From the NCBI GenBank assembly GCA_041650915.1, contig JBAZKE010000002.1, positions 80,638 through 144,637 on the forward strand: DNA of 64,000 nt. The letters are read 5' to 3'. Shown piece by piece: positions 1,852 to 45,564 of this stretch. The DNA comes from Patescibacteria group bacterium. Lineage in GTDB: Bacteria > Patescibacteriota > Patescibacteriia > UBA10025 > JAHIVO01. A program made the translations under genes and the position numbers. The notes under the pieces were generated by a model. It searched no databases. It worked only from the letters and a program-made list of their open reading frames with translations, and had not been told where the DNA came from. Every line of letters begins with the position of its first letter. Position 1 is the first letter of the stretch.

Positions 1852-2118
1852 ATGCACTACCTATACATACTACACAGTAAAAAAGATGCAAACTTGTATG
1901 TTGGGACAACAAACAATGCCGAAAGAAGGCTTGCTGAGCATAATGCCGGGCAAGTAGCGTCAACAAAAAACCGCAGGCCTCTGGCAATCGTATATTTGAA
2001 ACCGTACCCAACAAAACGGGAAGCCGCTAAACAGGAATGGTTGATAAAACATACCCCCGGCGCCGGAAAAAATAAAAAAGACCTCATTAAACAGTATCAA
2101 CAAACCAAGCGCGCATAG
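1852..2118 (+). CDS. GIY-YIG nuclease family protein (UPF0213/YhbQ-like)
   Basis: HYLYILHSKKDANLYVGTTNNAERRLAEHNAG...RRPLAIVY...REAAKQEWLIK has the GIY-(10)-YIG core plus the conserved Arg and Glu. The stop codon overlaps the first 10 nt of tRNA-Lys. The upstream TTG-initiated extension lies in a GC-rich hairpin and is unlikely to be coding. Confidence 0.65.
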   Translation: MHYLYILHSKKDANLYVGTTNNAERRLAEHNAGQVASTKNRRPLAIVYLKPYPTKREAAKQEWLIKHTPGAGKNKKDLIKQYQQTKRA

Positions 2119-2181
2119 CTCAGCCGGTAGAGCAGTTGCCTCTTAAGCAAACGGTCGGGGGTTCGAATCCCTCTGCGCGCA
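2109..2181 (+). tRNA. tRNA-Lys (anticodon CTT)
   Basis: Acceptor GCGCGCA/TGCGCGC, D arm GCTC-AGCCGGTA-GAGC, anticodon loop CTCTTAA, T arm GGGGG-TTCGAAT-CCCTC, discriminator A. Confidence 0.85.
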
Positions 2182-2227
2182 TAGCAAAAGCACTCAGCAA
2201 AAACGAGCTGGGTGTTTTTGATTACCC
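2165..2227 (+). repeat. Direct repeat A: last 17 nt of tRNA-Lys plus 46 nt of 3' flank
   Basis: gaatccctctgcgcgcatagcaaaagcactcagcaaaaacgagctgggtgtttttgattaccc; repeated at 2328..2389. Confidence 0.8.
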
Positions 2228-2327
2228 GCAGACGTACTGCAAGCCGGGATTCGAACGGGCACGAACGAGGCGCAGCCGAGTGACAAACAATTCGAGCTTA
2301 CGCAGAATTGTTTGGTGCCCAGGACGA
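2228..2327 (+). repeat. tRNA-linked structured element, copy 1 (divergent member; 100-nt core between 62/63-nt direct repeats)
   Basis: Core starts GGGATTCGAACGGGCAC and ends GTGCCCAGGACGAGAATCCCTC. Closing helix GGGCAC/GTGCCC. Internal 11-bp hairpin ACAAACAATTC-GAGCTTACGCA-GAATTGTTTG. Same 5' and 3' signature as the elements at 11.8 kb and 37.7-38.0 kb. Confidence 0.55.
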
Positions 2328-2389
2328 GAATCCCTCTGCGCGCATAGCAAAAGCACTCAGCAAAAACGAGCTGGGTGTTTTGATTACCC
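2328..2389 (+). repeat. Direct repeat B (copy of tRNA-Lys 3' end plus flank)
   Basis: 62-nt copy of 2165..2227, differing by one T fewer. Confidence 0.8.
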
Positions 2390-2399
2390 ACTGGCAACA

Positions 2400-3215
2400 C
2401 TACACTGGCCGCAGCGTACTGGCCCACACCTGCCACGCGAGAAGCGACTTTGCGACGAGGCTCAAGATAATATACGCACGCTCGCCGTACAGGTAGTCGC
2501 GCCACTTGCCAACCTTCTTATACTGCAAGATCATGTTGACTGCGAAGGAATTGAAGAACAGGAAGATTGAGAAGTAAATCCAATACACGAACGCCGGCGC
2601 CTTTGCGTCGCCTTCCCCGGCCGTAAACAGGTAAAGCCCGACAACGATCCATGGCACAGCTCCCGCGAGCACGCCAAACCAGTATGAAGTCCAGTCGGTC
2701 TTTTCGGTCCGCTGGTTATGCAGCTCCATCATCCAGCCAAACAGGATCATCATCATATTCAAGAAAAAAATCATAACCAGCCCGAGGCCGTCGTAGAGGC
2801 CGGTGAGCATGGCGATAATCACAATCATGAGCGACGAGCTGAATGCGTACTCAATCCAGCGCGCAGGGTTGATTCCTCTTCTTAGGTTTGATGCGTACTT
2901 CCGGTAGCCTGCGGGCAGCGAAATGAGGAGATGGGCGAGCGCTGACAAAAACAGAAATGCCGCTACCATCGGGCCGAGCTGTACCGTAAATTCAGTCTTG
3001 AGCACCGGCTCTAACTTCAGAGATTGCCGATTCATTTCCACGAATGCGGAGGTAATCGGCAACGCGAAATCAGAGCTCAAAAAGAGCATCAGGAATCCCT
3101 GCACCGCATGCAGTGCAGCCATAATAATGTTGAACCGCCTGAGCTTACCGAATTTTGCTTCGTCTTGCTGCGGAATTGCATCCGCTGTCTGTTCATTTTC
3201 CATAGTGCTACGCAC
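2400..3215 (-). CDS. Heliorhodopsin
   Basis: Matches heliorhodopsin signature blocks across 7 TM helices: RWIEYAFSSSLMIVIIA, ILFGWMME, WFGVLAGAVPW, SIFLFFNSFA, LQYKKVGKW, YLYGERAYIILSLVAKSLLAWQ, the last containing the retinal Schiff-base Lys. 271 aa. Confidence 0.85.
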   Translation of the reverse strand: MRSTMENEQTADAIPQQDEAKFGKLRRFNIIMAALHAVQGFLMLFLSSDFALPITSAFVEMNRQSLKLEPVLKTEFTVQLGPMVAAFLFLSALAHLLISLPAGYRKYASNLRRGINPARWIEYAFSSSLMIVIIAMLTGLYDGLGLVMIFFLNMMMILFGWMMELHNQRTEKTDWTSYWFGVLAGAVPWIVVGLYLFTAGEGDAKAPAFVYWIYFSIFLFFNSFAVNMILQYKKVGKWRDYLYGERAYIILSLVAKSLLAWQVWASTLRPV

Positions 3216-7080: not shown

Positions 7081-8706
7081 TTACACCTCCATGAAGTTTG
7101 CGTCCGAACACCGTATCGTGATCGGCGACGACGCCTTACTGAACGTGCGCTCATGGCGCTGGACATACGTCTTGCCGGGCGGAATCCTCCAGCCGCTTTT
7201 TGACCTGGCAAGCTCATGCGCCGTTTTACTTGCCGTATATCCATCAGGGAGCCGGCGAAACCGCGCACGCATGATTCGAACCTCATCGCGCCTGGCCTGC
7301 CGGATGCACCGGACCATGGAACATCCTGGAACGGCTTCGACACTGCGCTGTTCGTCATCGGAGCCGACCACGATCGCGTGGAGCGCATAGACGATGACAC
7401 ACAGCAATACTTCGCGCAGATACCCGAGATCGGATTCGTAGGCATTCTCAAGCACGTGGTCATTGACAATGAGCTGAAAATCGACAAGCTCAGCCGGAAA
7501 CCAGCAGAGCGCATACGCGTCCTTGCGGACGCCGATCTTCAAGCCGCAGTTCGGAAACTCATGCCCGTTCGGATAAAAGGCAACGGCACGAATCCCGGAA
7601 AACCGCAGCGCGCTCAGGTCAATTTCGACCCGATCATGCCCGTCGGGCAAGAGTTCGCACTGCACGTTGTCGCGGATCTCATCGCACATGCGCCGAAAGG
7701 CGGCTCGCAAATCGTTTTGTCGGTCCACAAACCGCTCCTTAAATGCCCGGCTCTCGCGATACATCCGATCCTTGCTGGCGCGGTCAGCCGTGATGAAGTC
7801 AACCAGCGGCTGCTCGCAGTCATCAGGAATGAGAATGTGAGGCTTCTGAAAATCAAACTGCCCTGGCACTGGTTCCGCCGCAACTGCGGACTCCCCCTGC
7901 CGTTCGTCCAGCCACGCGGGGGTATAGATGGCGATGCTCCGATTGAGCGACGCGAGCAACTCGAGTATGCCCCTCAAGTAGTCATCGACATCACGATCTC
8001 CCTTGCCGGCTGCCCGAATCAGATTAACGATCCACCGCTTCGACGAAAAAGCTTCATCACACGGCAACACGGCGGCCTGTATCGTGATTCTCGCGAACAA
8101 CGGCGGCCGCTGCCCAAAATAAGCGCTTTGCTTCGCTTCCGGAAGCGAGATGCCGTGCTCGATGGTGGAGCTGATCTCGCGAAACAGAAGCTCACAGAAC
8201 CGCTTGGTGTTCTCGATTGATTCGCCGATCGCCCTGAAGATGAAACCGGACGTTGCCGAACAAACGCATACATACTCACGCGAAACATTTTCTGCCGGAG
8301 TCATCGCGACCTCCAGTAGCGACAGATCCCCCTTCGCAAGGCTGCGAAGGGCAATCTTGGAAATCAACTCAACGTAGGCTGGCGTATCAATTCGCCCGGC
8401 GAGCTTGCAGTAGCGCTTCGCGACAAAATTGAGTATCTTCCTGAAAATGGCCCTGCAATCACCTCCCGATACGCTGCCGTCGCTCGTACCGAACATAGAC
8501 TCGTAGATGCCGCCAACGGCCTGATTGGACAACTCGCCCGTGCGTCCCGACAATACTTCCGCCAGAAAATTCCCCAGGATTTGGTTCGCGCCTCCATCGG
8601 CGTGATTGGTTCCCTTCTTTTTCTTGTTCCTGTTTTTGGAGCTCAAGGCAGCCCCTCCTTTCTCTCTCGATCTATATGTATATTCTATTTTCAATGTTCC
8701 GATCAC
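7081..8706 (-). CDS. Large orphan hypothetical protein, 541 aa
   Basis: Longest ORF in the region. Followed on its own strand by a hairpin plus U-tract terminator. No recognisable motifs; no Walker A, HD or CxxC. Low-complexity Lys-rich N-terminus, so the true start may be internal. Confidence 0.5.
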   Translation of the reverse strand: MIGTLKIEYTYRSREKGGAALSSKNRNKKKKGTNHADGGANQILGNFLAEVLSGRTGELSNQAVGGIYESMFGTSDGSVSGGDCRAIFRKILNFVAKRYCKLAGRIDTPAYVELISKIALRSLAKGDLSLLEVAMTPAENVSREYVCVCSATSGFIFRAIGESIENTKRFCELLFREISSTIEHGISLPEAKQSAYFGQRPPLFARITIQAAVLPCDEAFSSKRWIVNLIRAAGKGDRDVDDYLRGILELLASLNRSIAIYTPAWLDERQGESAVAAEPVPGQFDFQKPHILIPDDCEQPLVDFITADRASKDRMYRESRAFKERFVDRQNDLRAAFRRMCDEIRDNVQCELLPDGHDRVEIDLSALRFSGIRAVAFYPNGHEFPNCGLKIGVRKDAYALCWFPAELVDFQLIVNDHVLENAYESDLGYLREVLLCVIVYALHAIVVGSDDEQRSVEAVPGCSMVRCIRQARRDEVRIMRARFRRLPDGYTASKTAHELARSKSGWRIPPGKTYVQRHERTFSKASSPITIRCSDANFMEV

Positions 8707-8775
8707 CCAACGTACCAGAAAACGGACTCCCCGTCAAGTACAATCGCATTGATTATTCAGTACTTTTTCAGTACA

Positions 8776-10266
8776 ATGAAAGCACGGAACCGTATGCGTG
8801 CAATCCAAAACCTCCTCAGAAAAAAAGAGCTCTCGTTCATCCCGAAACTCCTCAAGCGGCTGCCGAGAGCCGAGCTCTTTTTGGTTGGCGGCATCATCCG
8901 CGATACGGCGGTGAAGCGTCCGTCAAAAGACTTCGACTTCGTTATCCGCAACGTCGGGGCAGCCAAACTCCAGTCGGAGCTCAAGAAGCTTGGGTGGGTT
9001 GACCTTGTCGGAAAGCGGTTCGGCGTATTCAAGTTTATCCCACAAGGCCTCACGCTCCCTGAACCGATCGATCTGGCGCTGCCGCGTACCGAGCATGCGC
9101 TCCTGACCGGCGGATACCGCGACTTCGACGTGCAATCAGACCCCAAGCTGCCCATTGAGCAGGACCTCATGCGCCGCGATTTTACCATCAATGCGATGGC
9201 ATACGACATCAGAGAGCAAAAGCTCATTGACCGGTTCGGCGGCATGCATGACATCAAAAAAAAGCTGATCAGGACGGTTGGCAAGCCCAACGAACGCTTT
9301 ACCGAAGATTTGTCCCGTATGCTCCGCGCGCTCCGGTTTGCGTCACAGCTGCACTTTTCAATCGAAACGCAAACCTGGCGCTCGCTCAAGAAGCTCAGCG
9401 CGCGCATCAACAAGCTCATCGCCGGAGAATACGTCGTACCGCGTGAAACCGTCGCACGCGAGCTGACAAAGGCGCTCACCGCAGATCCCGTATACGCAAT
9501 CGGGCTCCTCACAAAATCCGGCATCACCGAAAAGCTCATGCCTGAACTCATGAAGATGAAAGGGTGCCGGCAGCCGCGGAACTTCCACAGCGAGGGAGAC
9601 GTGTGGAAACATACGATGATTTGCATGCAAAACCTCTACTCAAATCCGTTCAAAAAAAAATTCGGCCCCGAGCCGCCCTCACCGGAACTCATCTACGCGG
9701 CGCTGCTCCACGATATCGGCAAACCGTACACGATAGAGCGGGCTGACCGGCTGCGGTTCAACAACCATGACGCCGTGGGGGCCGAGCTCTCAAAAAAAAT
9801 CCTATCGCGCCTGAGGATATCCTCGTCGGGCGTCGATACGGACCGGATCGTATGGCTCATACGGATGCACCTCATCACCACCCACTCCAAAAAATCACCA
9901 ATGAAAAAGACGACGCTCGAAAAATACTTTTTCAACGACCAACTGCCCGGAGGAGACCTGCTAAGGCTCCTGTACGCTGACGTGCAGGCGACGATCCCGC
10001 CGAGCGGCTGCCCGGATTTTACCGAGCACCATGCGCTCGAACAGCAGATAAAAAAACTCAGCCCGGAAGCACGCCACAGGCGTTCATTGCCGCCCGTGAT
10101 CATGGACGGCAATGAGATCATGCAGCAGCTCCGCATGGAACCGGGACCGGCCGTCGGGCAGCTCAAGACGCTCCTGCGCGAAGAGCAGCTCCGCGGCGGC
10201 CTCAAGACAAAAAAACAAGCAATGGAATTCCTCAAAAAGCATGCCAACATTCGACGTTACGCCTGA
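8776..10266 (+). CDS. cca: CCA-adding enzyme / poly(A) polymerase family tRNA nucleotidyltransferase with HD domain
   Basis: N-terminal PolyA_pol head (FLVGGIIRD, DFDF) and C-terminal HD domain (LLHDIGKP). Start placed at the internal MKARNRM. Confidence 0.8.
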   Translation: MKARNRMRAIQNLLRKKELSFIPKLLKRLPRAELFLVGGIIRDTAVKRPSKDFDFVIRNVGAAKLQSELKKLGWVDLVGKRFGVFKFIPQGLTLPEPIDLALPRTEHALLTGGYRDFDVQSDPKLPIEQDLMRRDFTINAMAYDIREQKLIDRFGGMHDIKKKLIRTVGKPNERFTEDLSRMLRALRFASQLHFSIETQTWRSLKKLSARINKLIAGEYVVPRETVARELTKALTADPVYAIGLLTKSGITEKLMPELMKMKGCRQPRNFHSEGDVWKHTMICMQNLYSNPFKKKFGPEPPSPELIYAALLHDIGKPYTIERADRLRFNNHDAVGAELSKKILSRLRISSSGVDTDRIVWLIRMHLITTHSKKSPMKKTTLEKYFFNDQLPGGDLLRLLYADVQATIPPSGCPDFTEHHALEQQIKKLSPEARHRRSLPPVIMDGNEIMQQLRMEPGPAVGQLKTLLREEQLRGGLKTKKQAMEFLKKHANIRRYA

Positions 10267-11200
10267 CAATGCCAAACAACGGCTCGATAAATTCTTGACC
10301 GAGCGGCTTCCGGGGCGCTCACGCTCACAGATCCAGAAGCTGATCAAGTCGGGCGGCGTTGCCGTAAACGGAAAAACCGTGGCAGTCCACCACTTCTTGA
10401 GGGCAAAAGACTCCGTGAGCATTGATGATGCGAAGGTGCGCGAAGCAGCCGGCGGCGGTTTCATGAAAAAATTACTGCAACGGCAGCTGGCGCCGGAACT
10501 GGCGATTGTCCACGACGCTGGGGACTTCTGCGTGGTTAATAAGCCGGCCGGGCTGCTCGTCCATGAAGCGCCGGGCGATACAGGCACGACGCTTGTCGAC
10601 CTGATCCTGAAAAAATTCCCTTCGGTAAAAAAAGTCGGGGAAGACCCGATGCGCCCCGGCATCGTGCACCGACTTGATAAGGAGGTGTCCGGTCTCCTCG
10701 TCATCGCGAAAACGCAAAATATGTTTGACCACCTTAAAAACCAGTTCAAGCAGCGGAAGGTGGCGAAGGAGTACACCGCGCTCGTCCACGGCGCGCCCCA
10801 GCGGCACGGCGGCGAGATTACGTTTAACATTGACCGGAGCGAAACCGCAGGCCACAAGATGGCTGCGGTGCCGATAACAGGCTCAGACAACCGCGGCAAA
10901 CGTGCGGTAACTCAATTTGAAACTATTGAAAAAATTGGCAACTTCACGTTGCTCAAGATCATGCCAAAGACGGGCCGGACGCACCAAATCCGCGTCCACC
11001 TCAACGCGTATGGGCTGCCGATCGTCGGCGACCTTACGTACCGGCCGAAGAAGGTCATCTCAAAAATCGAAATGAAGCGCATCTTCCTGCACGCGAACCA
11101 CCTCGAATTCAACGACGTGAACGGGATCCGCCGGTCCTTTGATGCGCCGCTGCCCGATGAACTGGCGACCGTACTGTCACGGCTTAAAAGCCAGAGTTGA
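10241..11200 (+). CDS. rluD: RluA/RluD-family pseudouridine synthase
   Basis: S4 domain at the N-terminus; catalytic HRLDKEVSGLLV motif; TGRTHQIRVHL. Confidence 0.8.
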   Translation: MPTFDVTPDNAKQRLDKFLTERLPGRSRSQIQKLIKSGGVAVNGKTVAVHHFLRAKDSVSIDDAKVREAAGGGFMKKLLQRQLAPELAIVHDAGDFCVVNKPAGLLVHEAPGDTGTTLVDLILKKFPSVKKVGEDPMRPGIVHRLDKEVSGLLVIAKTQNMFDHLKNQFKQRKVAKEYTALVHGAPQRHGGEITFNIDRSETAGHKMAAVPITGSDNRGKRAVTQFETIEKIGNFTLLKIMPKTGRTHQIRVHLNAYGLPIVGDLTYRPKKVISKIEMKRIFLHANHLEFNDVNGIRRSFDAPLPDELATVLSRLKSQS

Positions 11201-11707: not shown

Positions 11708-11783
11708 GGTGGCTATAGCACAATGGTTCGTGCACCGGTCTGTGGCACCGGCAATGAGGGTTCGATTCCCTCTAGCCACCCCA
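11708..11783 (+). tRNA. tRNA-His (anticodon GTG) with G-1, CCA encoded
   Basis: G-1 plus acceptor GTGGCTA/TAGCCAC, anticodon arm CCGGT-CTGTGGC-ACCGG, T arm GAGGG-TTCGATT-CCCTC, discriminator C. Confidence 0.85.
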
Positions 11784-11837: not shown

Positions 11838-11970
11838 AGAGGGAATCGAACGGGCAGAAGCGACCCTGAACTTGATTCAGGGGAGCGCCGGCGAATGCAA
11901 GCTGGCGCAGCATTCGGCGCTGCCCAGGACAAGGCTCCGCAGGAGCCGCGATAATCCCCCGAGCCGCCCT
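11838..11970 (+). repeat. tRNA-linked structured element, copy 2
   Basis: GGGAATCGAACGGGCAGAAGCGACCC-[hairpin 1]-GGGGAGCGCCG-[27-nt hairpin 2]-CGCTGCCCAGGACA, then hairpin GGCTCC-gca-GGAGCC and a tRNA-3'-end-like tail GATAATCCCCCGAGCCGCCC. Lies 55 nt after tRNA-His. Confidence 0.6.
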
Positions 11971-12143
11971 AGAAAAATTTTCAGCACCTACGCGCGGATA
12001 AAAAACTTTTTATTGTGTGCTCATCACGCCGGCAAAGCATAAAACTCCCGTCCTGCTAAAGGAAGATTGGAATTTACCAACACATCAATGCATAACCGCA
12101 TGTATTCTGATATACTTACCGTATCCCTGTAAATATAATTCTT

Positions 12144-28637: not shown

Positions 28638-31503
28638 AGTCGATCGTTACGTCATGGAGTATGGGCGTCTCAACCCCATCGGATAGTAATTCAGCGCGGT
28701 ACTGGAGCCACCGGAGGCCTGTCGCTGCAGGATCCGCGCCAAGCACCTCGCCGGGGGCGGCGTAGTAGCTGCCGGCAGCGCCATCAGCGCCTACCCATGC
28801 CGCGCCGGCAAGGCCGGCTTCGGTATCCGCGGTACGGGTCTGCAGCCGCACTATGGTACCGGCAGGCTCAGACGCTGCCCAGGCAATATAATTCAAGACC
28901 GGATTAACCGCGCCGGTATCGTACGCTGATGATACAATGCTTCCACTGAGAGAAAATCCGGATGATGCAGAGACGAGGTACGCGAGCCGCACCGCGTCGA
29001 GCGAAACCTGCTGCACGCCGTCCGACCTGAGAAAGGCTTTGAAGGTAATCCGCCGGGCCTTCGGTAGGAATGAAGCGATGTGCGCATCAATATCGGCAGC
29101 TGTACTGTAATTATCCGATCCCGCGACCGCCCACGTGCCGCCGTCCCAGTACTGCCACGTCGCACCGCCATCATCCGAGAGCTGGTAGTAGATCTCGCCA
29201 CCGTTCTTGGTTGCGATCTCCTCGAACGAGTGCCAGGCGTACACGTCAGCCGAGCTGAACGAAATTTTCTGCATGATCGATGGGCTCGTAGTCGGGTATG
29301 ATGCGCCTGCGGCCTTTTCCCAGTACGCGAGTGCGTTGTCAAAACCGATGGTAAAGGGACCGGCCCGTACACCGGTTGTATCAACCCACACGGCGAGCTT
29401 GAGGTAGTACGTGCCGGGCGCCGCGATGCGGCTCGTAATGTCAATCGGGCCGAACGAAGCCCAGGCTGTGGTTCCGATGAGCTGGCCCGAGGTCCACGCT
29501 TCAGTGCCGATGGACGGCAAGCCCGGCTTTGTATCGACGAATACGTACGCCTGGAATTGCCGGGGCCTGCCGCCCAATCTAATGACCGATGTGTCAAACT
29601 GCACGAAAGCAGGGTCGGGATTCGACTCGGTAACCTCAAACGACTGCTCGAAGTAACCGCCAAGCCTGTCATCGCGACCGATGGGAATATAAATCTGCGC
29701 GAACGCGCCGGGGTTGCCGCCCAACAATTGGTAGCTGCCCCGTACATCCACTTCATTTAAACCCTGGTCCCAATCAGTATACTCCCATGGCTTGAGCTCC
29801 AGGTCAAAACCCGAATTGGCGGTACCGCCGGACAAGGTCGGGCTCTGGTTCACGAGTTGCGCCGCCGAATCAATAACCTCAATGTCGCCAGAATCGAATG
29901 AATAATCTGCGGGGATATCGAAGGTGGAATCAAACGCCCTAACCGCATCATACGTTACCCGCACAGCATCGAGTGACACCTGCTGCGCGCCATCAGAAGA
30001 CAAAAATGCGCGGAACAGGAGCCGCTGCGCACCCGCAGGGAAACTCAATATGTGCGAATTGATTTCCGCGGCGGTATTGAAATCGGTATCAGATGTAACG
30101 ACAATCCACGTGCCGCCGTCCCAGTACTGCCACGTCGCACCGTCATCATCCGAGAGCTGGTAGTAGATCTCGCCTCCGTTCTTGGTTGCGATCTCCTCGA
30201 ACGAGTGCCAGGCGTACACGTCAGCCGAGCTGAATGAAGCAGTTGGCGTAATCGGAGGTTCATCGGCCGGGTAGCTCGGCGTCCCGATTTTTTCCCAGTT
30301 CAGCCGCGCATCATCAAAACCGATGCGGAATAACCCATCACGGGTGCGGTCGCTCTCGACCCACACGGCGAGCTTGAGGTAGTACGTCCCGGGCGCCGCG
30401 ATGCGCGAGGCCACGTCGATCGGCCCGATCGACGTCCACGGCGCGGTACCGGTCAGCTCGCCAGATGACCACACCTCCGTACCGACAACCGGCTCGCCGG
30501 GCGCAGAATCAACGAATACGAACGCCTCGAGCGTAACAGGAATCCCATTGAAGGCAAGTACGCTGCCGTCGAAGGAAACGTACGCGGTCTCTGGATTGCT
30601 CTCCGTCACGGTAAAGCTCTGCCGAAAGTACCCGCCGACCTCGTCATAGGTGCCCTGCGGAATGATGATTTCGGCGTACCCGCCAGGATCCCCTCCGGAC
30701 AACTGCCGTAAACCGCGTACATTCACCTCATCACCGCCTTGGTTCCAATCGGCGTACTGCCAAGGCGTGAGTGCGGCATCAAAACCCGGATTCGTCGTGC
30801 CGCCGGACGCTGAGATGCTCTGGTTCACAAGCTGCGCCACCGAACCCGTTATTTCAATGTCTGCGGGATCAAAGGTATAGCCCGCCGGGTCGTCAAAGGG
30901 AGAGATGAAGTGCGGAGGCACTCCCGCCTCAACGAGGCGGACATCCCCCCCGTCTGTCCCGGTTGCGACCGCACTGCTCAATGTGCCCTGATTAAAATCA
31001 GCCTCCGTGGTCTGTACCCACTTCAGGCTCTGCCAATTCGTGAGATAGCTCGTCAACGACACTTCGGAAGGGCGTGAGGTGGTGAAATCCCACGTGAGCG
31101 TCGCCGTCAGCTTCTTGGTATCAAAATCAACAGTGCCCCCGGCCTCGACAATGTTTCCAGACGCATCCCGCTGTGCCGGCTCAACGGTAACCGTACGGAC
31201 GAAGGTGTCATCAATAACATTCGGCACCGGAGAGAGAGCCCACGTCCCGCCCGAGCGGTCAATTCCGTACGCCCCGTCGGCAAGGTCCCGCCACCCTCGG
31301 TTCGCGATGCTAACCGCAGCTTCATGCGTTTCTTGGGCGAGCAGGGCAGCCCGCGTGCGCTCTTTGCCCTGCCGATTTGCCGAGTGGGCATCGAGCGTTA
31401 GAAACATGACGCTCGAAACGACCAATACAAACACTCCCATCGCCACGATGAGCTCGATGACGCTCTGGCCGCGTTGGCTGTTGAAGCTACTGTACATTGA
31501 CAA
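28627..31503 (-). CDS. Giant pilin-like protein, 958 aa, with prepilin N-terminus and two ~320-aa internal repeats
   Basis: N-terminus QRGQSVIELIVAMGVFVLVV. The internal block ADVYAWHSFEEIATKNGGEIYYQLSDD[D/G]GATWQYWDGGTW... occurs twice, about 960 nt apart, with near-identical nucleotides at ~29.1 kb and ~30.1 kb. Confidence 0.7.
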   Translation of the reverse strand: MSMYSSFNSQRGQSVIELIVAMGVFVLVVSSVMFLTLDAHSANRQGKERTRAALLAQETHEAAVSIANRGWRDLADGAYGIDRSGGTWALSPVPNVIDDTFVRTVTVEPAQRDASGNIVEAGGTVDFDTKKLTATLTWDFTTSRPSEVSLTSYLTNWQSLKWVQTTEADFNQGTLSSAVATGTDGGDVRLVEAGVPPHFISPFDDPAGYTFDPADIEITGSVAQLVNQSISASGGTTNPGFDAALTPWQYADWNQGGDEVNVRGLRQLSGGDPGGYAEIIIPQGTYDEVGGYFRQSFTVTESNPETAYVSFDGSVLAFNGIPVTLEAFVFVDSAPGEPVVGTEVWSSGELTGTAPWTSIGPIDVASRIAAPGTYYLKLAVWVESDRTRDGLFRIGFDDARLNWEKIGTPSYPADEPPITPTASFSSADVYAWHSFEEIATKNGGEIYYQLSDDDGATWQYWDGGTWIVVTSDTDFNTAAEINSHILSFPAGAQRLLFRAFLSSDGAQQVSLDAVRVTYDAVRAFDSTFDIPADYSFDSGDIEVIDSAAQLVNQSPTLSGGTANSGFDLELKPWEYTDWDQGLNEVDVRGSYQLLGGNPGAFAQIYIPIGRDDRLGGYFEQSFEVTESNPDPAFVQFDTSVIRLGGRPRQFQAYVFVDTKPGLPSIGTEAWTSGQLIGTTAWASFGPIDITSRIAAPGTYYLKLAVWVDTTGVRAGPFTIGFDNALAYWEKAAGASYPTTSPSIMQKISFSSADVYAWHSFEEIATKNGGEIYYQLSDDGGATWQYWDGGTWAVAGSDNYSTAADIDAHIASFLPKARRITFKAFLRSDGVQQVSLDAVRLAYLVSASSGFSLSGSIVSSAYDTGAVNPVLNYIAWAASEPAGTIVRLQTRTADTEAGLAGAAWVGADGAAGSYYAAPGEVLGADPAATGLRWLQYRAELLSDGVETPILHDVTIDYEP

Positions 31504-37628: not shown

Positions 37629-37705
37629 GGGCAACTAGCTCAGTTGGTTAGAGCGTCTCGTTTACACCGAGAAGGTCGGGGGTTCGACTCCCTCGTTGCC
37701 CACCA
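37629..37705 (+). tRNA. tRNA-Val (anticodon TAC), CCA encoded
   Basis: Acceptor GGGCAAC/GTTGCCC, anticodon arm TCTCG-TTTACAC-CGAGA, T arm GGGGG-TTCGACT-CCCTC. Confidence 0.85.
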
Positions 37706-37863
37706 TAAACGATAGCGAACAGCAGCGACGTTTACAAAATATCAACAGTGCTAGTTGGCCGGCAGGAGTCGAAGGGCAGCAGCGACCCCAAAGGGGAGCG
37801 CCGATACGTGCGATGCAAAGAGCACGGATCGCTGCCCCGGGAAGACTCCCTCGTTGCCCACCA
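37706..37863 (+). repeat. tRNA-linked structured element, copy 3 (tandem unit 1; ends in a 20-nt copy of the tRNA-Val 3' end)
   Basis: Unit: 60-nt flank taaacgatagcgaac...gttggcc, then core GGCAGGAGTCGAAGGGCAGCAGCGACCC-caaa-GGGGAGCGCCG-[26-nt hairpin]-CGCTGCCCCGGGAA, then GACTCCCTCGTTGCCCACCA identical to the tRNA-Val 3' end. Confidence 0.7.
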
Positions 37864-38031
37864 TAAACGATAGCGAACGGCAGCGACGTTTACAAAATAT
37901 CAACAGTGCTGGTTGGCCGGCAGGAGTCGAAGGGCAGCAGCGACCCTGAGCTTGGCACAGGGGAGCGCCGGTGCGCGCGACCAGGAGAAGCGCGGACCGC
38001 TGCCCCGGGAAGACTCCCTCGTTGCCCACCA
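37864..38031 (+). repeat. tRNA-linked structured element, copy 4 (tandem unit 2)
   Basis: Near-identical to copy 3 in flank and scaffold. Hairpin 1 is extended (CCCTG-agcttggca-CAGGG). Hairpin 2 is completely different in sequence but has the same length (27 vs 26 nt) and pairing. Ends again in the tRNA-Val 3' 20 nt. Confidence 0.7.
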
Positions 38032-41707: not shown

Positions 41708-42532
41708 TTAATACACAACTACAATCTTATACGGCCCATCAATTTGGTCTGTCGTTCTGACCGTCCCGTCGCATACATTATCTACGAGCTTGTAGTTAAT
41801 GTAGACATACCCGTCAATAAACTTGACGTAATTGGGGTAATGGCCGCCACCAAGAAACTCCCATGCCTCTCCATCATTGGGCCATCCAGACGCAGCATTC
41901 TCCTCATACGCATAGACGTTGATCTCGGGCATATCGCTCATGTCTAGCTCTGGTACCGCAATCTTTGCCCAATGGTAATCATACGTCGCGGTGTAATCAT
42001 CAAATGGGCACTCAGGATTTTGATCAACGCTGACAACCTCATCGCCATCAGCGTCCATATCAAGCGTGCCTTGGTATACCTTCTTTTTTGCTACCGCAGC
42101 GCCATTCACGGTCAAATCGCCGACAACTTCCATATCATCATTCACGATAAACGGTTTATTGTCGTCAAGCCCAGCGCCTGCGGTTGCCCCGCGGTACACG
42201 CGACCGTCAATGCGGACATTGTCACCGAAGGTAATCGGATTATCAGCGCCGCCGGTTCCGGTCGTGTTGTTGAGAATCGTGCCATTGAACGCCGTAACGC
42301 CGCCTGCGGTCTGTGAGCCAACTTTTAACGAATTCACCGTCATCACGCCATCAACCACAAAATAATCCCCGGAAACGCCTCCGAGGGCTGTAGTGACATT
42401 ATGGGATGTTGCCGCACGTACGATTCCGGCGGTAATTGCGGTTGAAGCGATAATTACCACAGCCACAATCATTACTTTTTTCATGATATCACCCCCTTTC
42501 GTGTAATATTCTACTGATTCAGTATACCGCAT
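41708..42532 (-). CDS. Secreted hypothetical protein (paralog A)
   Basis: Signal peptide MKKVMIVAVVIIASTAITAGIVRA. The N-terminal ~130 aa are paralogous to 44617..45564 (GDYF.VDG.M.V..LKVG.Q..GGVT.FNGTI.N.T...GG..P.TFGDNVRIDGRVYRGATAG). Confidence 0.55.
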   Translation of the reverse strand: MRYTESVEYYTKGGDIMKKVMIVAVVIIASTAITAGIVRAATSHNVTTALGGVSGDYFVVDGVMTVNSLKVGSQTAGGVTAFNGTILNNTTGTGGADNPITFGDNVRIDGRVYRGATAGAGLDDNKPFIVNDDMEVVGDLTVNGAAVAKKKVYQGTLDMDADGDEVVSVDQNPECPFDDYTATYDYHWAKIAVPELDMSDMPEINVYAYEENAASGWPNDGEAWEFLGGGHYPNYVKFIDGYVYINYKLVDNVCDGTVRTTDQIDGPYKIVVVY

Positions 42533-42594
42533 ACTTTCTATTACTATGGGCCTCCGGGATGCCGGAGGCCCATATTGAACTTTTTACTGACACG

Positions 42595-44460
42595 CTACTC
42601 CCAGACTTGGTACGTTAGGTACAGCCAATCGTCGCCGTTTGACTCGCCAAACCACTCTTCGCCATTATCATCACGCACGGCAACCATCATGTTAATATTA
42701 GGGCCAACGTAATCATCGGTAATAGTCCACTGGTACGTACTGACACTGCTCCAATCCTGCACAACAGTACCTGAACCGCCGTAATCAAACAGCATAAATT
42801 TGTACTCAAGATCGTCGCTTTCCGTGTCTGTTGCCGCAGCGGTAAAGGTTATCATTTCGCCCACCTCAAGCATGGGGTACTCGGACCACTGGTAGGTGTC
42901 ATCTCCTTCGCCGGCAGCTGATTTATTTTGCGTATTGCCCAACGAATCTACCACAGAAACGAGAGTAGCATTTTCATTGTCGCCTCCGCCCAAAACCTTA
43001 TACGTCATATAGAGCCAGTCGTCGCCGTTGTCGCCTGCCGCGAGAATGTCGTTGTCATCCTTCACGCCGACTTGCACGTTCACCGACGGCCCGATGTCGC
43101 TGCTGCTGATATCCCACACGTAAGTACTGTCAGCGCTCCAATCCTGCACGGTCGTGCCAGAACCGTCCGCACCGTAGAATATAAACCGGTACATGATCGC
43201 ATCGCCTTCGGGATCTGTTGCGTTGACGGTAAAAGTGAGCTCATCGCCGACCGTGAGCTCGGGATACTCAGACCACTGGTACTGGCCGTCAGGCGTCCAG
43301 GAAAATTCCTGCACATTATCCTCCGAATCGGTCACGCTCGTAATGGTTGCATCCCCGTTGTCAGAACCGCTCTGTACCTGGTAGGTGAGGTATGTATAGT
43401 CGTCGCCGAGGCCAGAACCCATGCGCTCGATTGAATTGTTATCCTTCACCCAGGCCGTTACCGGCATCTGCCTGCCAACGTGATCAGCATCAACCGTCCA
43501 GGTAGCGGTATTGGTCGTTGACCAATCCTGGATAACGTCATTGCCGTTACCCACGGTAAACTTATAATAAACATAGTTAACCTTCTTGCCCTCGTACACG
43601 CTGACGCTGCCGGATTCGGATGTCGATGCCTCAACAATATCGTCAGAACTGATTTCCTCGTCATCAATGTAGTCCACGGCGTTCACCGTAAAAGTAATCT
43701 CATCGCCGACGGTAACAACGGGGTAGTTGCCGCTCGCGTACTCATCCATGCTCCACTCGCCGGTCCCCTCAACGGCCCACGAATTCTCCTGCTCATTGCC
43801 GAACGAGTCCTCAACCTTCACGATGAGCGGATTCCGTACGCCGCGTGCAATGCCGACAACATCCGCCCGGTCAGCGAGGAATGCGGCCAGCTCTTCATCG
43901 GTCGGTTCACGCCCGATTTCACTCATGACGATATTCCGCAGCACGAGCCGCCGCTCGGTACTTCCGTTCAAAACCGCCAGAATGTCGCCGACGTCCGAAC
44001 GGGTGACCTCAAAAAAATCGACATCCGGCTCTGGAGCTTCACGGTCAAGGTACCGGCGGTACACGTTCTGAATCGCGAGCGTACGCTCAATCGTATTAAA
44101 CACCTGCTCGCGGATGCGGTTATTCTCGGCGACCCACTGCTTGAGCTGCGTCAGCTCGCGCTCCATCGCAGCCCTCCCCAGCGCACGCTGGTAGATTGCA
44201 TGGATGGCGAGATCACGCTCCGGCCACTGGTTAAGCTCTGTTTTAATCGCCGCGCGGGTCGTAAAATTCGCACGGTTGTTTACGAGGTCTGCTGCGCTTG
44301 GATCCCGGTCGAGCATTTCCTGAAACGCAGCCTTAATCTCATCGTCGAGCGAGAGCGCTGCCGCTTCCTTCGGGAAGCTCATGCCTGCCAAGAGGACCGC
44401 AAAAAAAGCGAGCAGTATCGCTGAGCCCGCCAGCCCTCTCGTGGTCGTTGTCGTACCCAT
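42595..44460 (-). CDS. Secreted tandem-repeat protein, 621 aa
   Basis: Signal peptide. ~230-aa helical N-terminal domain. Then four ~115-aa repeats (QDWS..ST..W.I...D.G....V.V.VKDDN........GDDW.Y.TY.V), acidic. Confidence 0.6.
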   Translation of the reverse strand: MGTTTTTRGLAGSAILLAFFAVLLAGMSFPKEAAALSLDDEIKAAFQEMLDRDPSAADLVNNRANFTTRAAIKTELNQWPERDLAIHAIYQRALGRAAMERELTQLKQWVAENNRIREQVFNTIERTLAIQNVYRRYLDREAPEPDVDFFEVTRSDVGDILAVLNGSTERRLVLRNIVMSEIGREPTDEELAAFLADRADVVGIARGVRNPLIVKVEDSFGNEQENSWAVEGTGEWSMDEYASGNYPVVTVGDEITFTVNAVDYIDDEEISSDDIVEASTSESGSVSVYEGKKVNYVYYKFTVGNGNDVIQDWSTTNTATWTVDADHVGRQMPVTAWVKDNNSIERMGSGLGDDYTYLTYQVQSGSDNGDATITSVTDSEDNVQEFSWTPDGQYQWSEYPELTVGDELTFTVNATDPEGDAIMYRFIFYGADGSGTTVQDWSADSTYVWDISSSDIGPSVNVQVGVKDDNDILAAGDNGDDWLYMTYKVLGGGDNENATLVSVVDSLGNTQNKSAAGEGDDTYQWSEYPMLEVGEMITFTAAATDTESDDLEYKFMLFDYGGSGTVVQDWSSVSTYQWTITDDYVGPNINMMVAVRDDNGEEWFGESNGDDWLYLTYQVWE

Positions 44461-44616
44461 AGCTTTTTTGTTAAGTATTAAGCCTTACGGGGGGTAAGTT
44501 CCATTATTATAGCATACTATTTTACCCGCACGAAAAAACAGCATTGTGCGTAGTTACAGACAAAAAGCAGCACCATCCGATGCCGGAGCGCTGCTTTTTG
44601 GGGAAAACAACGTATG

Positions 44617-45564
44617 TTACCGCTTCAGCTCGACCACGTCGAGCGTATTATTGTACATGCTTGCTGTTGTTCCATCATCGGTGTTCCACCCGACCTGAAA
44701 TGTATGGTCGCCGGCTTCGACATCAACGAGCGCCGTGAAGGCGAGCGTAAACGTTTCATCGGCAGTATTGGAAGTCCCGCGACGAATCGTATGCGATACG
44801 ATGGAATCATCAACTACCAGGAAAATCCTGGCAGAACTGTTATTCGTATCGTTCGATAGCACGCCGCTGAACATGACGAGGGCAACGCTGTCTCCGGTGG
44901 TCATGTCGACCTCGGTTGTCAGGAGGTCATAATCGTCCGCGACCTCGGTTGTTGTCTGTGCCGCTGTTCCGCTATCCTCGGTCGCCTGTGTTACCGCGCT
45001 AGCCGCGAGTGCGGCTGTTCCGACCGCACCATCACCGATCGCAGCCGCCGTAACGGCATCGTCGGCAATCTGATCTGCGGTAATCGCATCGTCGGCAATC
45101 TGGTCTGCGGTAATCGCATCGTCGGCGACATTTGCAGTCGCTACGATGCCGTCACCTGAGAACGCAGTTGCGGTCAAGGTATCAACCGACAGATCGCCAA
45201 CCACCTCCATGTTATCGTTCACGATGAACGGCAGATCATCGGTTACTCCCGCCGTTGCCCCGCGGTACACGCGCCCGTCAATGCGGACATTGTCGCCAAA
45301 GGTAACCGGAATATCGCCACCTTCGCTGTCGGTCGTCTGATTGATGATCGTACCGTTAAAAAAAGTTACGCCACCGACTCCCTGCTCGCCGACCTTGAGC
45401 GCATCGACGAACATAATGCCGTCTACCTCAAAGTAGTCGCCGGCGACGCCGCCGAGCGTCGAGGTAACATTGTGGAGTGAAGCTGCCCGTACGATCCCCG
45501 CCGTGAGGGCAATCGATGCTACAACTACCATGGCGGCTGTAAGTGTTCGCTTCATTCGAATCAC
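44617..45564 (-). CDS. Secreted hypothetical protein (paralog B) with C-terminal DDAITADQIA repeats
   Basis: Signal peptide MKRTLTAAMVVVASIALTAGIVRA. N-terminal domain paralogous to 41708..42532, including a ~55-nt near-identical nucleotide stretch. Confidence 0.55.
   Translation of the reverse strand: MIRMKRTLTAAMVVVASIALTAGIVRAASLHNVTSTLGGVAGDYFEVDGIMFVDALKVGEQGVGGVTFFNGTIINQTTDSEGGDIPVTFGDNVRIDGRVYRGATAGVTDDLPFIVNDNMEVVGDLSVDTLTATAFSGDGIVATANVADDAITADQIADDAITADQIADDAVTAAAIGDGAVGTAALAASAVTQATEDSGTAAQTTTEVADDYDLLTTEVDMTTGDSVALVMFSGVLSNDTNNSSARIFLVVDDSIVSHTIRRGTSNTADETFTLAFTALVDVEAGDHTFQVGWNTDDGTTASMYNNTLDVVELKR

Follow-up and report, generated by a model that had tools for sequence, protein, structure and literature searches.

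Pieces of the adjoining tRNA gene flank a small structured core at tRNA-Lys and at other tRNA genes of Patescibacteria

The stretch analyzed here, referred to below as the window, comprises 64,000 nt of contig JBAZKE010000002.1 (positions 80,638 to 144,637 of the contig, assembly GCA_041650915.1) from a Patescibacteria group bacterium. Near its start lies an intact tRNA-Lys(CTT) gene (2109-2181, forward strand, as is everything at this locus unless stated; ARAGORN; Rfam tRNA, 70.2 bits), in which G53-C56 (GTTC) occupies 2161-2164, G57 is position 2165 and CCA is not encoded. The feature of interest is a unit of 163 nt at the 3' end of this gene, which is best described as a member of a new family, here termed the tRNA-elbow module. 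As the initial annotation of this DNA stated, the last 17 nt of tRNA-Lys (nt 57-73, 2165-2181) and a 46-nt flank, F, form a direct repeat (2165-2227) that recurs at 2328-2389, where nt 57-73 in sense orientation (the right arm, 2328-2344) are followed by a second flank F. Local alignment (repeat family D14) finds 2165-2218 and 2328-2381 identical at 54 of 54 positions, after which five T's in the first copy face four in the second and the repeat runs on to 2227 and 2389, giving copies of 63 and 62 nt. The start of the repeat is exactly G57, the fifth base of the T-loop segment GTTCGAAT (nt 53-60). Flank F folds into a 14-bp hairpin followed by a U-run, T5 in the first copy (-20.7 kcal/mol, z -5.75), which indicates that the intrinsic terminator of tRNA-Lys was duplicated along with the tRNA end.

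All 100 nt between the two repeat copies had been taken as a structured core. A core does lie there, but the first 18 nt (2228-2245, GCAGACGTACTGCAAGCC) are a spacer, with GGGATTCGAAC starting only at 2246, and the final GAATCCCTC that was assigned to the core is part of the repeat. The left arm GGGATTC (2246-2252) and the junction J, GAAC (2253-2256), together GGGATTCGAAC, form the exact and contiguous reverse complement of tRNA-Lys nt 53-63 (GTTCGAATCCC, 11/11), and would serve either as the 3' strand of a helix, H, made with the tRNA or as the 5' strand of an alternative local helix, P1. The spacer contributes CGCAGA (2227-2232, its first base being the last of repeat copy 1), which complements tRNA-Lys nt 64-69 (UCUGCG) and pairs with 2172-2177 in the minimum free energy (MFE) fold of 2109-2389. 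The core proper extends from GGGCAC to GTGCCC (2257-2320) and is delimited by a covariance model, R1 (64.4 bits), by RNAalifold, by pair counts and by MFE folds. It is composed of helix P2 (GGGCAC/GTGCCC), a GC/GC step with GA/GA under a short P3 hairpin, and a P4 hairpin of 9-10 bp. The 3' junction AGGACGA (2321-2327), which in alignments of the family has the consensus AGGAC..., leads into the right arm; other copies carry an optional extra hairpin, P5.

Three further members occur in the window, all on the forward strand and all downstream of a tRNA gene. The copy after tRNA-His (tRNA 11709-11783; element 11838-11971, 82.1 bits), here W_His, has a left arm plus J, AGAGGGAATCGAAC (11838-11851), that complements tRNA-His nt 53-66 at 14 of 14 positions, a core at 11852-11925 and a P5 hairpin at 11933-11947; its right arm (11950-11971) has diverged and is followed by a diverged copy of the tRNA-His terminator flank. 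Behind tRNA-Val (37629-37705) stand two tandem units belonging to repeat families D4 and D5. Unit 1 (37765-37863, 63.2 bits) has the left arm GGAGTC plus GAA (complement 9/9), a core at 37774-37837 and a right arm (37844-37863) that reproduces exactly the final 20 nt of tRNA-Val, CCA included, and unit 2 (37923-38031, 68 bits) ends in its own right arm at 38012-38031. The spacers of the two Val units are 98% identical, while their P3 and P4 hairpins differ in a compensatory way. Searched against the window, R1 scores these four copies at 63-82 bits and its next best match at 12 bits or less. The signature that had been noticed at 11.8 kb and 37.7 kb is thus borne out, as a pattern derived from the four copies matches only those four and finds nothing in 100 shuffles.

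The consensus of 43 sequences describes the core as a three-way junction of 70-90 nt, with P2 as GGGCAG/CUGCCC, the two-pair GC/GC step flanked by GA/GA under a variable P3, and P4 as a 9-10-bp hairpin. Of 811 cells in paired columns, 96.9% hold a pair, compared with 31-41% when the pairing is slid along the alignment, and both sides have changed in 138 cells against 38 in shuffles. Compensatory changes are seen at 13 of the 19 pairs, among them the closing helix that had been singled out earlier (GGGCAC/GTGCCC against GGGCAG/CTGCCC), where pair 11-94 is GC in 41 sequences and CG in two. G.U pairs number 15 and A.C pairs three, a bias that favors a structure on the sense strand of the tRNA. 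The alignment thus gives strong evidence of covariation in the core, with a strand bias towards the tRNA sense strand. It was also observed that hairpin interiors (terminators, P3, P4) can be replaced wholesale, without loss of pairing, between repeats that have 98-100%-identical flanks, as in L009 and L042 (loci from the genome and metagenome scans are designated L0nn) and in the two Val units. Gene conversion among copies and template switching at palindromes are both possible sources of this localized hairpin turnover.

A module can accordingly be defined by P2 (GGGCAG/CUGCCC), by the series AGCGA-[P3]-GAGCGCC-[P4], by a preceding helix that ends in GAAC, and by co-orientation with an adjacent tRNA whose pieces flank it. 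By this definition the Lys copy belongs to the family, with an R1 score of 64.4 bits, a left arm plus J complementary to nt 53-63 and a right arm equal to nt 57-73. A scan of contigs with one genome per species gave 44 pattern matches, of which inspection retained 29 as genuine and set aside 15 as chance matches in coding sequence of high-GC genomes. A narrower pattern applied to metagenomes gave 12 loci, three of them near-identical to other loci; near-identical copies occur on contigs of three samples (L049, L053, L057). Nearly all genuine loci are on metagenome-assembled genomes (MAGs) of Patescibacteria (Parcubacteria, Kerfeld-, Veblen-, Jackson- and Saccharibacteria). These loci show that a widespread family of tRNA-linked structured modules exists. 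The window is Patescibacterial too, its heliorhodopsin and MgtA matching MAG proteins at 100%. Nine loci (L011, L013, L014, L017, L018, L026, L028, L032 and L039) are on MAGs labeled 'uncultured Gammaproteobacteria' or 'Acidobacteriaceae'; these labels may be wrong, or the family may reach beyond the Patescibacteria. In Rfam 15, only tRNAs reach the gathering score in the window, and three loci scanned at E<=10 returned matches at chance level only. The core pattern has no match among IMG/VR viral contigs, and the motif is not described in the literature searched on tRNA genes of Patescibacteria or the Candidate Phyla Radiation (CPR), on tRNA insertions and on tRNA-linked structured RNA.

The arms, like the core, recur across the family, and they are made from whichever tRNA is next to it. 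Of 29 genome loci, 24 have a co-oriented tRNA next to the core, in most cases 39-165 nt upstream of it. More than 15 isotypes are involved, and each core with a nearby tRNA points the same way as that tRNA. The right arm repeats without change the final 15-21 nt of the upstream tRNA, beginning at T-loop nt 57/58 and taking in the 3' end with CCA where it is encoded, and many right arms bear one or two extra A's. The left arm plus J is a contiguous reverse complement of its own tRNA starting from G53/U54; its median length is 10.5 bp and its maximum 20 bp. Computed over 23 loci, covariation in the arm-tRNA helix follows the variants of the T-loop: GUCC occurs with GGAC, GUUCA with UGAAC, and position 59 forms A:U, U:A, G:U or C:G. 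The arms of L024, L026 and L027 place an A opposite T64, whereas the tRNA's own T-stem has G there in its 5' strand, so the arm is a complement and not a direct copy of that strand. Duplex energies of the left arm with the right flank, measured against shuffles, were uninformative because the sequence is GC-rich. The alignments thus give evidence that the arms complement their own tRNA and that the 3' copy evolves in concert with it. No gene lies between tRNA and core, or between core and 3' copy, in any of about 40 units. At L005 (oriented 2423-2530) a second partial copy of tRNA-Asp, beginning in the anticodon loop, sits between tRNA-Asp and the element and is preceded by a different small hairpin with the motif GGAGCGAAGCGAC, which also builds the optional P5 hairpin in L003, L020, L027 and L058. 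A perfect palindrome, (C)CTGCCTGCCGGCAGGCAG(G), occupies different positions of the element in two genomes, before P2 in L003 (5051-5068) and in P5 of L009 (724-741); it may be a very small mobile unit.

Five pairs of loci look orthologous (L020/L059, L009/L042, L033/L055, L049/L058 and L056/L060), and they allow constraint on the element to be compared with that on its surroundings. Spacers, terminator interiors and downstream DNA are 40-60% identical within these pairs, whereas the cores are 75-97% identical with compensatory changes in P4, the left arm plus GAAC is identical where comparable, and the 3' copy is exact. To illustrate, tRNA-Arg differs in its acceptor stem between L020 and L059 (AGAGCGC and AGGGCGC); the difference is mirrored in the 3' copy and falls outside the region that the left arm could pair with. 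In duplicated flanks that have diverged (L003, L009, L020, L030, W_His), the tRNA-derived 15-20 nt are usually still exact. Conservation of core, arms and 3' copy amid diverged spacers, as these comparisons of sequence show at orthologous sites, argues against neutral integration scars.

A second configuration places the module in the other loop of the elbow. In L017, L018, L023, L028, L052, L056 and L060, the core interrupts the D-loop behind G18-G19 in a tRNA copy, partial or complete, that is adjoined by an intact tRNA. Some of these copies have a plain GC hairpin in place of, or on, the anticodon arm or the T arm. L038 has its core behind a copy of tRNA-Gly nt 1-48 and upstream of the intact gene. 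In both types a local hairpin ends in GAAC, and its 5' strand starts with GUUC or a compensating variant (for instance GUUCCGCC/GGCGGAAC, GUUUCACC/GGUGGAAC, GCCCCGC/GCGGGGC and GUUCAG/CUGAAC), which implies that a helix H abutting P2 belongs to the module. In the configuration seen in the window, the sole partner for GAAC is G53-C56 of the real tRNA, since the downstream copy starts at nt 57. The insertion points are after G19 and after C56, two bases that pair with each other at the tRNA elbow. Nested tRNA-like genes were also seen beside tRNA-Phe in L023 (the same as L054; oriented 1460-1930), L056 and L060. One is a tRNA-like shell that lacks an anticodon loop and holds a whole intact tRNA-Phe in its D-loop, this inner tRNA being flanked by an inverted copy of its own 3' end and trailer; another is a pseudo-tRNA-Phe whose D-loop, anticodon loop and variable loop each carry a separate insert, the one in the D-loop being the core. 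Three genomes have kept the arrangement. The spacer after tRNA-Val in the window (37706-37763) contains ATAGCGAACAGCAGCGACG, which resembles a junction of the D type (TAGCGAA) fused to the core 5' end (AGCAGCGAC) and may be a remnant of an older core copy.

The 5' side of tRNA-Lys itself carries a related arrangement. A copy of nt 1-21 (1761-1781), a 50-nt insert with two hairpins and GAGCA (nt 22-26) make up a feature at 1761-1836, recognized from sequence and fold, in which the insert is closed by the D-stem pairing GCUC/GAGC. A sigma-70-like promoter, TTGAAA-17-TATACT (1719-1747), is just upstream of this fragment. Between the fragment and the intact tRNA is an 88-aa open reading frame (ORF) of the GIY-YIG family (1852-2118, from the ORF list; PF01541, E = 1.6e-17), whose stop codon TAG is inside tRNA-Lys nt 8-10. 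Judged by its sequence, 1719-2118 resembles a D-loop insertion cassette which supplied a new 5' end and makes use of the tRNA promoter. As the 5'-side arrangement mirrors the 3' one, tRNA-Lys appears to have been invaded at both elbow-side loops, with an intact gene regenerated each time.

We give about an even chance (0.5) to the reading that the feature is a structured RNA module attached to Patescibacteria tRNA genes at the elbow, with its tRNA-derived arms as working parts of the fold. The MFE fold of 2109-2389 (z -6.1) joins tRNA-Lys nt 53-69 to GAAC, the left arm and the spacer CGCAGA; in it, the first terminator hairpin becomes the loop of this helix, and the 5' acceptor strand (2109-2115) pairs with the downstream copy (2338-2344). 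MFE folds elsewhere pair the acceptor with the distal copy in 17 of 19 loci and form helix H in 10 of 19. Under this reading, helix H, its 3' strand ending in GAAC and pairing with GUUC, would directly abut the P2-P3-P4 three-way junction. In the configuration of the window its 5' strand would be the T-loop and 3' strand of the intact tRNA (nt 53-63 or beyond), and its 3' strand the antisense left arm. Transcription that stops at the first terminator would give the normal tRNA, while read-through would give a transcript covering the unit. The long transcript could then refold, with the left arm sequestering tRNA nt 53-6x and the duplicated 3' end completing the acceptor stem and the T stem. 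This would yield an RNA of tRNA shape whose elbow is replaced by a three-way junction and whose 3' end, a normal one, comes from the copy. An alternative product, or that of orphan copies, would be a stand-alone hairpin of left arm and right arm with a tRNA-like 3' tail, and D-loop versions would give a product of the same kind, encoded by a separate tRNA-like gene. The probable source of new copies is duplicative insertion at the elbow, after C56 or G19, with the intact tRNA regenerated, together with gene conversion among copies; mobility of the module is plausible. Expression as a stable RNA on the tRNA strand is putative, pointed to indirectly by the excess of G.U over A.C pairs (15 and three), by co-orientation and by the terminator after the 3' copy. 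Read in this way, the direct repeats would be more than integration scars, namely functional portions of an RNA. A bolder version, which we offer tentatively and think more doubtful than probable, is that Patescibacteria make a second class of tRNA-shaped RNA by alternative choice of the 3' end. Such RNAs would keep the anticodon arm, acceptor and NCCA, have the junction in place of the elbow, and play isoacceptor-specific roles outside decoding (sensing, decoy, priming or recruitment of partners), and the module would spread between tRNA genes through pairing of GAAC and the arm with the T-loop.

Several points weigh against an RNA module. The alignment from which covariation was counted, A3, was fitted to the model and its sequences are related, and the E-values are rough. 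The abrupt hairpin changes between Val unit 1 and unit 2, and between the L009 and L042 terminators, could come from a process at the DNA level that gives compensation without selection on RNA. Where the left arm covaries with nt 57-65, pairing with the downstream copy or templated inverted copying of DNA would account for it just as well; nt 53-56 alone discriminate, and the GUCC/GGAC case there comes from a single lineage (L009/L042). About six right arms have decayed in their acceptor part (including W_His, L012-L014 and L039) and several copies have no upstream tRNA (L049, L051, L015, L022, L031), which implies that the refolded form is not universal and that turnover is present; many copies may be dying. 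A good terminator hairpin stands between tRNA-Lys and the element and a promoter scan finds none evident in the 18-nt spacer, so transcription of the element depends on read-through. Co-transcriptional folding and fast tRNA processing would favor the ordinary tRNA fold, and the MFE predictions leave out tRNA tertiary structure, modifications and co-transcriptional folding.

The initial annotation read the two repeats as attL- and attR-like. The geometry is indeed that of an element integrated in a tRNA gene, but the antisense arm, the more than 15 isotypes, the conserved 3' copy and the lack of any gene in the unit do not follow from it. Integration in this sense would make the unit a miniature integrative element, a 'naked attP' of some 160-250 nt with a tRNA 3' end and terminator, that entered the T-loop through a tyrosine recombinase acting in trans. 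Core and left arm would be the recombinase-binding arm, possibly as folded single-stranded DNA in the manner of CTX phage attP or integron attC, the regenerated tRNA and displaced 3' fragment would be left behind, and the empty-site junction would read tRNA-Lys/F/ACTGGCAAC. An identity block from T-loop nt 57 to or past the tRNA end is textbook geometry for such an event (PMC4383910, PMC1762012), and the 54-nt identity of the Lys repeats, the tandem tRNA-Val units and the serial 3' copies in L005, the anticodon-loop type included, also speak for it. At W_His the left arm fits the regenerated tRNA at 14 of 14 positions while the displaced copy has decayed, as if the arm pairs with an element-borne copy. 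A tyrosine recombinase gene does end at position 166, about 2 kb upstream; what had been described as a truncated integrase at 2-166 is its C-terminus (PF00589 positions 121-167 of 172), the gene being cut off by the window edge and not truncated itself. The earlier statement that no integrase is adjacent is correct, this fragment being the only recombinase and outside the repeats, and among the 30 largest of the 47 window ORFs of at least 150 aa, Pfam finds no reverse transcriptase, transposase, Cas/TnpB, IscB or integrase apart from it. Integrases are site-specific, whereas here one core serves more than 15 isotypes and each copy has arms tailored to its own tRNA. Nor do any of the roughly 40 units hold an integrase, and no full-length parent element was seen among them. 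Under the att model no antisense copy of tRNA nt 53-63 or beyond would be expected 5' of the core; the model also leaves unexplained the D-loop copies and the 5' partial copies upstream of an intact tRNA, and sits poorly with a displaced fragment that is conserved, and co-varies with the tRNA, at orthologous sites amid diverged DNA. The bias of G.U over A.C points to the sense strand as RNA, and there are no viral-contig matches. Presence of the element does differ between genomes, the window having the order Leu-His-element and L044 Leu-element-His, and this distant comparison is the sole presence/absence contrast. As to an empty site, a metagenome scan with the tRNA-Lys 3' end and flank gave no match; heliorhodopsin neighbors (80-84% identity) are not syntenic and have neither the core nor tRNA-Lys; and the nearest MgtA relatives are only 65% identical, hence provide no usable orthologue of the His locus. 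The nearest relatives of the window are 65-84% identical in protein with no synteny at tRNA-Lys, and no strain-level empty site was found. On balance, we consider a miniature integrative element unlikely.

Spread as selfish DNA could also be imagined, with a non-autonomous element moving among tRNA genes by repair of breaks, such as those made by GIY-YIG enzymes, and copying via the conserved T-loop; the inverted arm would then stem from template switching, and compensatory changes would be a by-product of palindrome dynamics. The GIY-YIG ORF in the analogous insert and regenerated-tRNA layout 5' of the same tRNA-Lys suits this idea, as does another beside the nested tRNA-Phe of L023, but GIY-YIG genes are beside only two of about 45 loci. 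The A opposite T64 in L024, L026 and L027, which marks the arm as a complement, is compatible with template switching, and the mosaic cores within 98-100%-identical flanks, the possible core 5'-end remnant of the Val spacer and other small palindromes inserted at different places in different genomes also favor the idea. Against it, P1 of L030 contains three G.U pairs (GGGGUUU/GAGUCCC), which suggests pairing at the RNA level; the junction sequences are conserved between Patescibacteria lineages that are very far apart, and orthologous sites have kept their elements. Moreover, every insertion is in a loop of the tRNA fold, and D-type arms are replaced by plain hairpins, which suggests that an RNA fold is being preserved. 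Such a selfish origin seems improbable to us. A guide-RNA-like function, for which the core would be a scaffold and the tRNA 3' end a 17-20-nt 3' guide steering an enzyme of the TnpB, IscB or Cas12 kind, with GTTC as adjacent motif, would account for a 3' segment of that length identical to a nearby target that the invariant GTTC precedes, and for the use of one scaffold with different 3' segments (the 3' part of the T-loop or of the D-loop). It is nonetheless very improbable: TnpB, IscB, Cas and transposase proteins are missing from the same 30 window ORFs, and none is adjacent at any locus; the putative guide is masked by the complementary arm; D-type copies have no GTTC-type motif before the 'guide'; and neither an omega-RNA nor a CRISPR repeat is matched in Rfam. 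That the source is a MAG, and that the repeats are short (62-63 nt), might raise the suspicion of a mis-joined or expanded repeat, an assembly artefact against which the initial annotation had warned. This can hardly be so, since dozens of independent assemblies, and four places in the window, show this same architecture with arms specific to the tRNA.

The RNA module, preferred here, shares features with several known systems. In the definition used by Islander, a regenerated tRNA and a displaced 3' fragment mark a tRNA-integrated island (PMC4383910), and attB of mycobacteriophage Ms6 lies in the T-loop of tRNA-Ala (PMC1762012). Intact tRNA, insert, displaced 3' copy, an identity block from the T-loop, and tandem or serial 3' fragments are common to islands and the present units. 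Unlike islands, the units are only 100-250 nt, have no integrase or other gene, and bring one cargo to more than 15 isotypes; they carry an antisense copy of the target ahead of the cargo, their displaced fragment is conserved and co-evolves with the tRNA, and D-loop and 5'-side versions occur.

Among bacterial non-coding RNAs, tRNA-like domains are found in transfer-messenger RNA (tmRNA) and in YrlA/Y RNA-like RNAs (Rfam RF02553). As in these, a foreign structured domain sits on a helix that resembles an acceptor/T arm and has a tRNA-type 3' end, and the UUCGAAC-GGG... and ...GGAC of the module resemble the strands flanking tmRNA helix P2. The module differs in having many copies per genome, each mimicking its neighbor tRNA, with arms copied from the adjacent gene instead of being fixed and tRNA-Ala-like. 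ARAGORN finds no tmRNA in the window, and YrlA was rejected, its sole match (15 bits against a gathering score of 69 bits) covering the tRNA-Lys 3' half and terminator flank (2129-2217) and not the core. Integron attC and the CTX phage attP hairpin are single-strand recombination sites defined by structure. Like them, the module is an imperfect hairpin of 60-140 nt in which pairing is conserved over sequence, with no gene inside and a short ...AAC motif at its 5' base; unlike them, it is always co-oriented with a tRNA and flanked by its pieces, and its junction is at nt 56/57, not G|TT. An attC identity was dropped, as by eye TTCGAAC and GTTCGAA match RYYYAAC and GTTRRRY at 5/7 positions, not at both ends, and there is no array and, among the 30 largest window ORFs, no integron integrase.

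Disrupted tRNA genes of archaea, which include non-canonical introns and split and permuted tRNAs (PMC4033280, PMC4390854), resemble the present loci, in the excerpts available of those papers, in having foreign sequence at loop positions and a leader or flank that is complementary to tRNA parts and could join pieces. By the same excerpts they differ in that the hosts here are bacterial and an intact, uninterrupted tRNA is always beside the disrupted copy, so that splicing is not needed. The tRNA-scaffold approach for expressing structured RNAs, mentioned in the available part of PMC10155629, likewise puts a structured RNA within a tRNA body, where processing enzymes could define its ends and stabilize it; as far as that part describes it, the module differs in being natural, in its position at the elbow (D- or T-loop) instead of the anticodon arm and, for the type found in the window, in sharing the scaffold with a functional tRNA by means of a duplicated 3' end. 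Other candidates were discarded. Miniature inverted-repeat elements (MITEs) do not fit, as the inverted arms are local tRNA copies that differ per locus, the duplication is about 18 to more than 60 nt, and the Pfam search of the 30 largest window ORFs yields no transposase. Retrons and similar RNAs linked to reverse transcriptase are contradicted by the absence of a gene within any unit and of a reverse transcriptase in that same search. Hammerhead, twister and hatchet cores, k-turn or box C/D guides, and IS91-type GTTC targeting were dropped by eye, as was a retroviral-type primer-binding site, for which the arm stops short of the CCA end. The feature is outside every known family tested; it can be regarded as a variant of known tRNA-targeting insertions and of tRNA-like RNAs, and the chance of its being something more distinct is substantial.

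Some neighboring features may be recorded. A heliorhodopsin gene (2400-3215, reverse strand) converges on the tRNA-Lys locus, its stop codon being about 10 nt from the second terminator. At 8581-11200, a CCA-adding enzyme (PolyA_pol head and HD) and an RluA-type pseudouridine synthase are directly upstream of the cluster of tRNA-Leu, tRNA-His and element; their proximity is probably coincidental. Large diverged direct repeats (D1-D3; 150-280 nt, 70-93% identical) at 29112-30530 and 42177-45530, in long ORFs without a Pfam match, are unrelated to the tRNA-linked element. Outside the window, a long GC hairpin is found about 100-250 nt upstream of the orphan elements L015, L049 and L051 (for example GCGGGGCGGAATTCC...TTCCGCCCCGC in L015), and in L015 and L051 it is followed by a tRNA-3'-like piece, ...AAAATAGGTTC...CCATACCA; from their sequence, the two together may be another structured RNA with a tRNA-like end.

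Repeats of tRNA fragments of this kind will mislead island finders, which take the displaced tRNA fragment as an island boundary. If the module is a selfish element, it would be, to our knowledge, the smallest tRNA-targeting insertion with regeneration of its target, and it would point to trans-acting machinery serving an element without an enzyme of its own. If it is an expressed RNA, it would represent a widespread class of structured RNA in the CPR that has neither an Rfam family nor a description in the literature searched, and one of unusual build, borrowing its 3' end from the neighboring tRNA and supplying a spare copy in return. Should the alternative choice of the 3' end prove true as well, the modules would amount to a system of RNA 'expansion segments' for tRNAs. 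With an expressed RNA, the roles of tRNA-shaped, non-decoding RNAs in reduced genomes would become testable, and so would the way in which tRNA genes tolerate insertions and regenerate afterwards.

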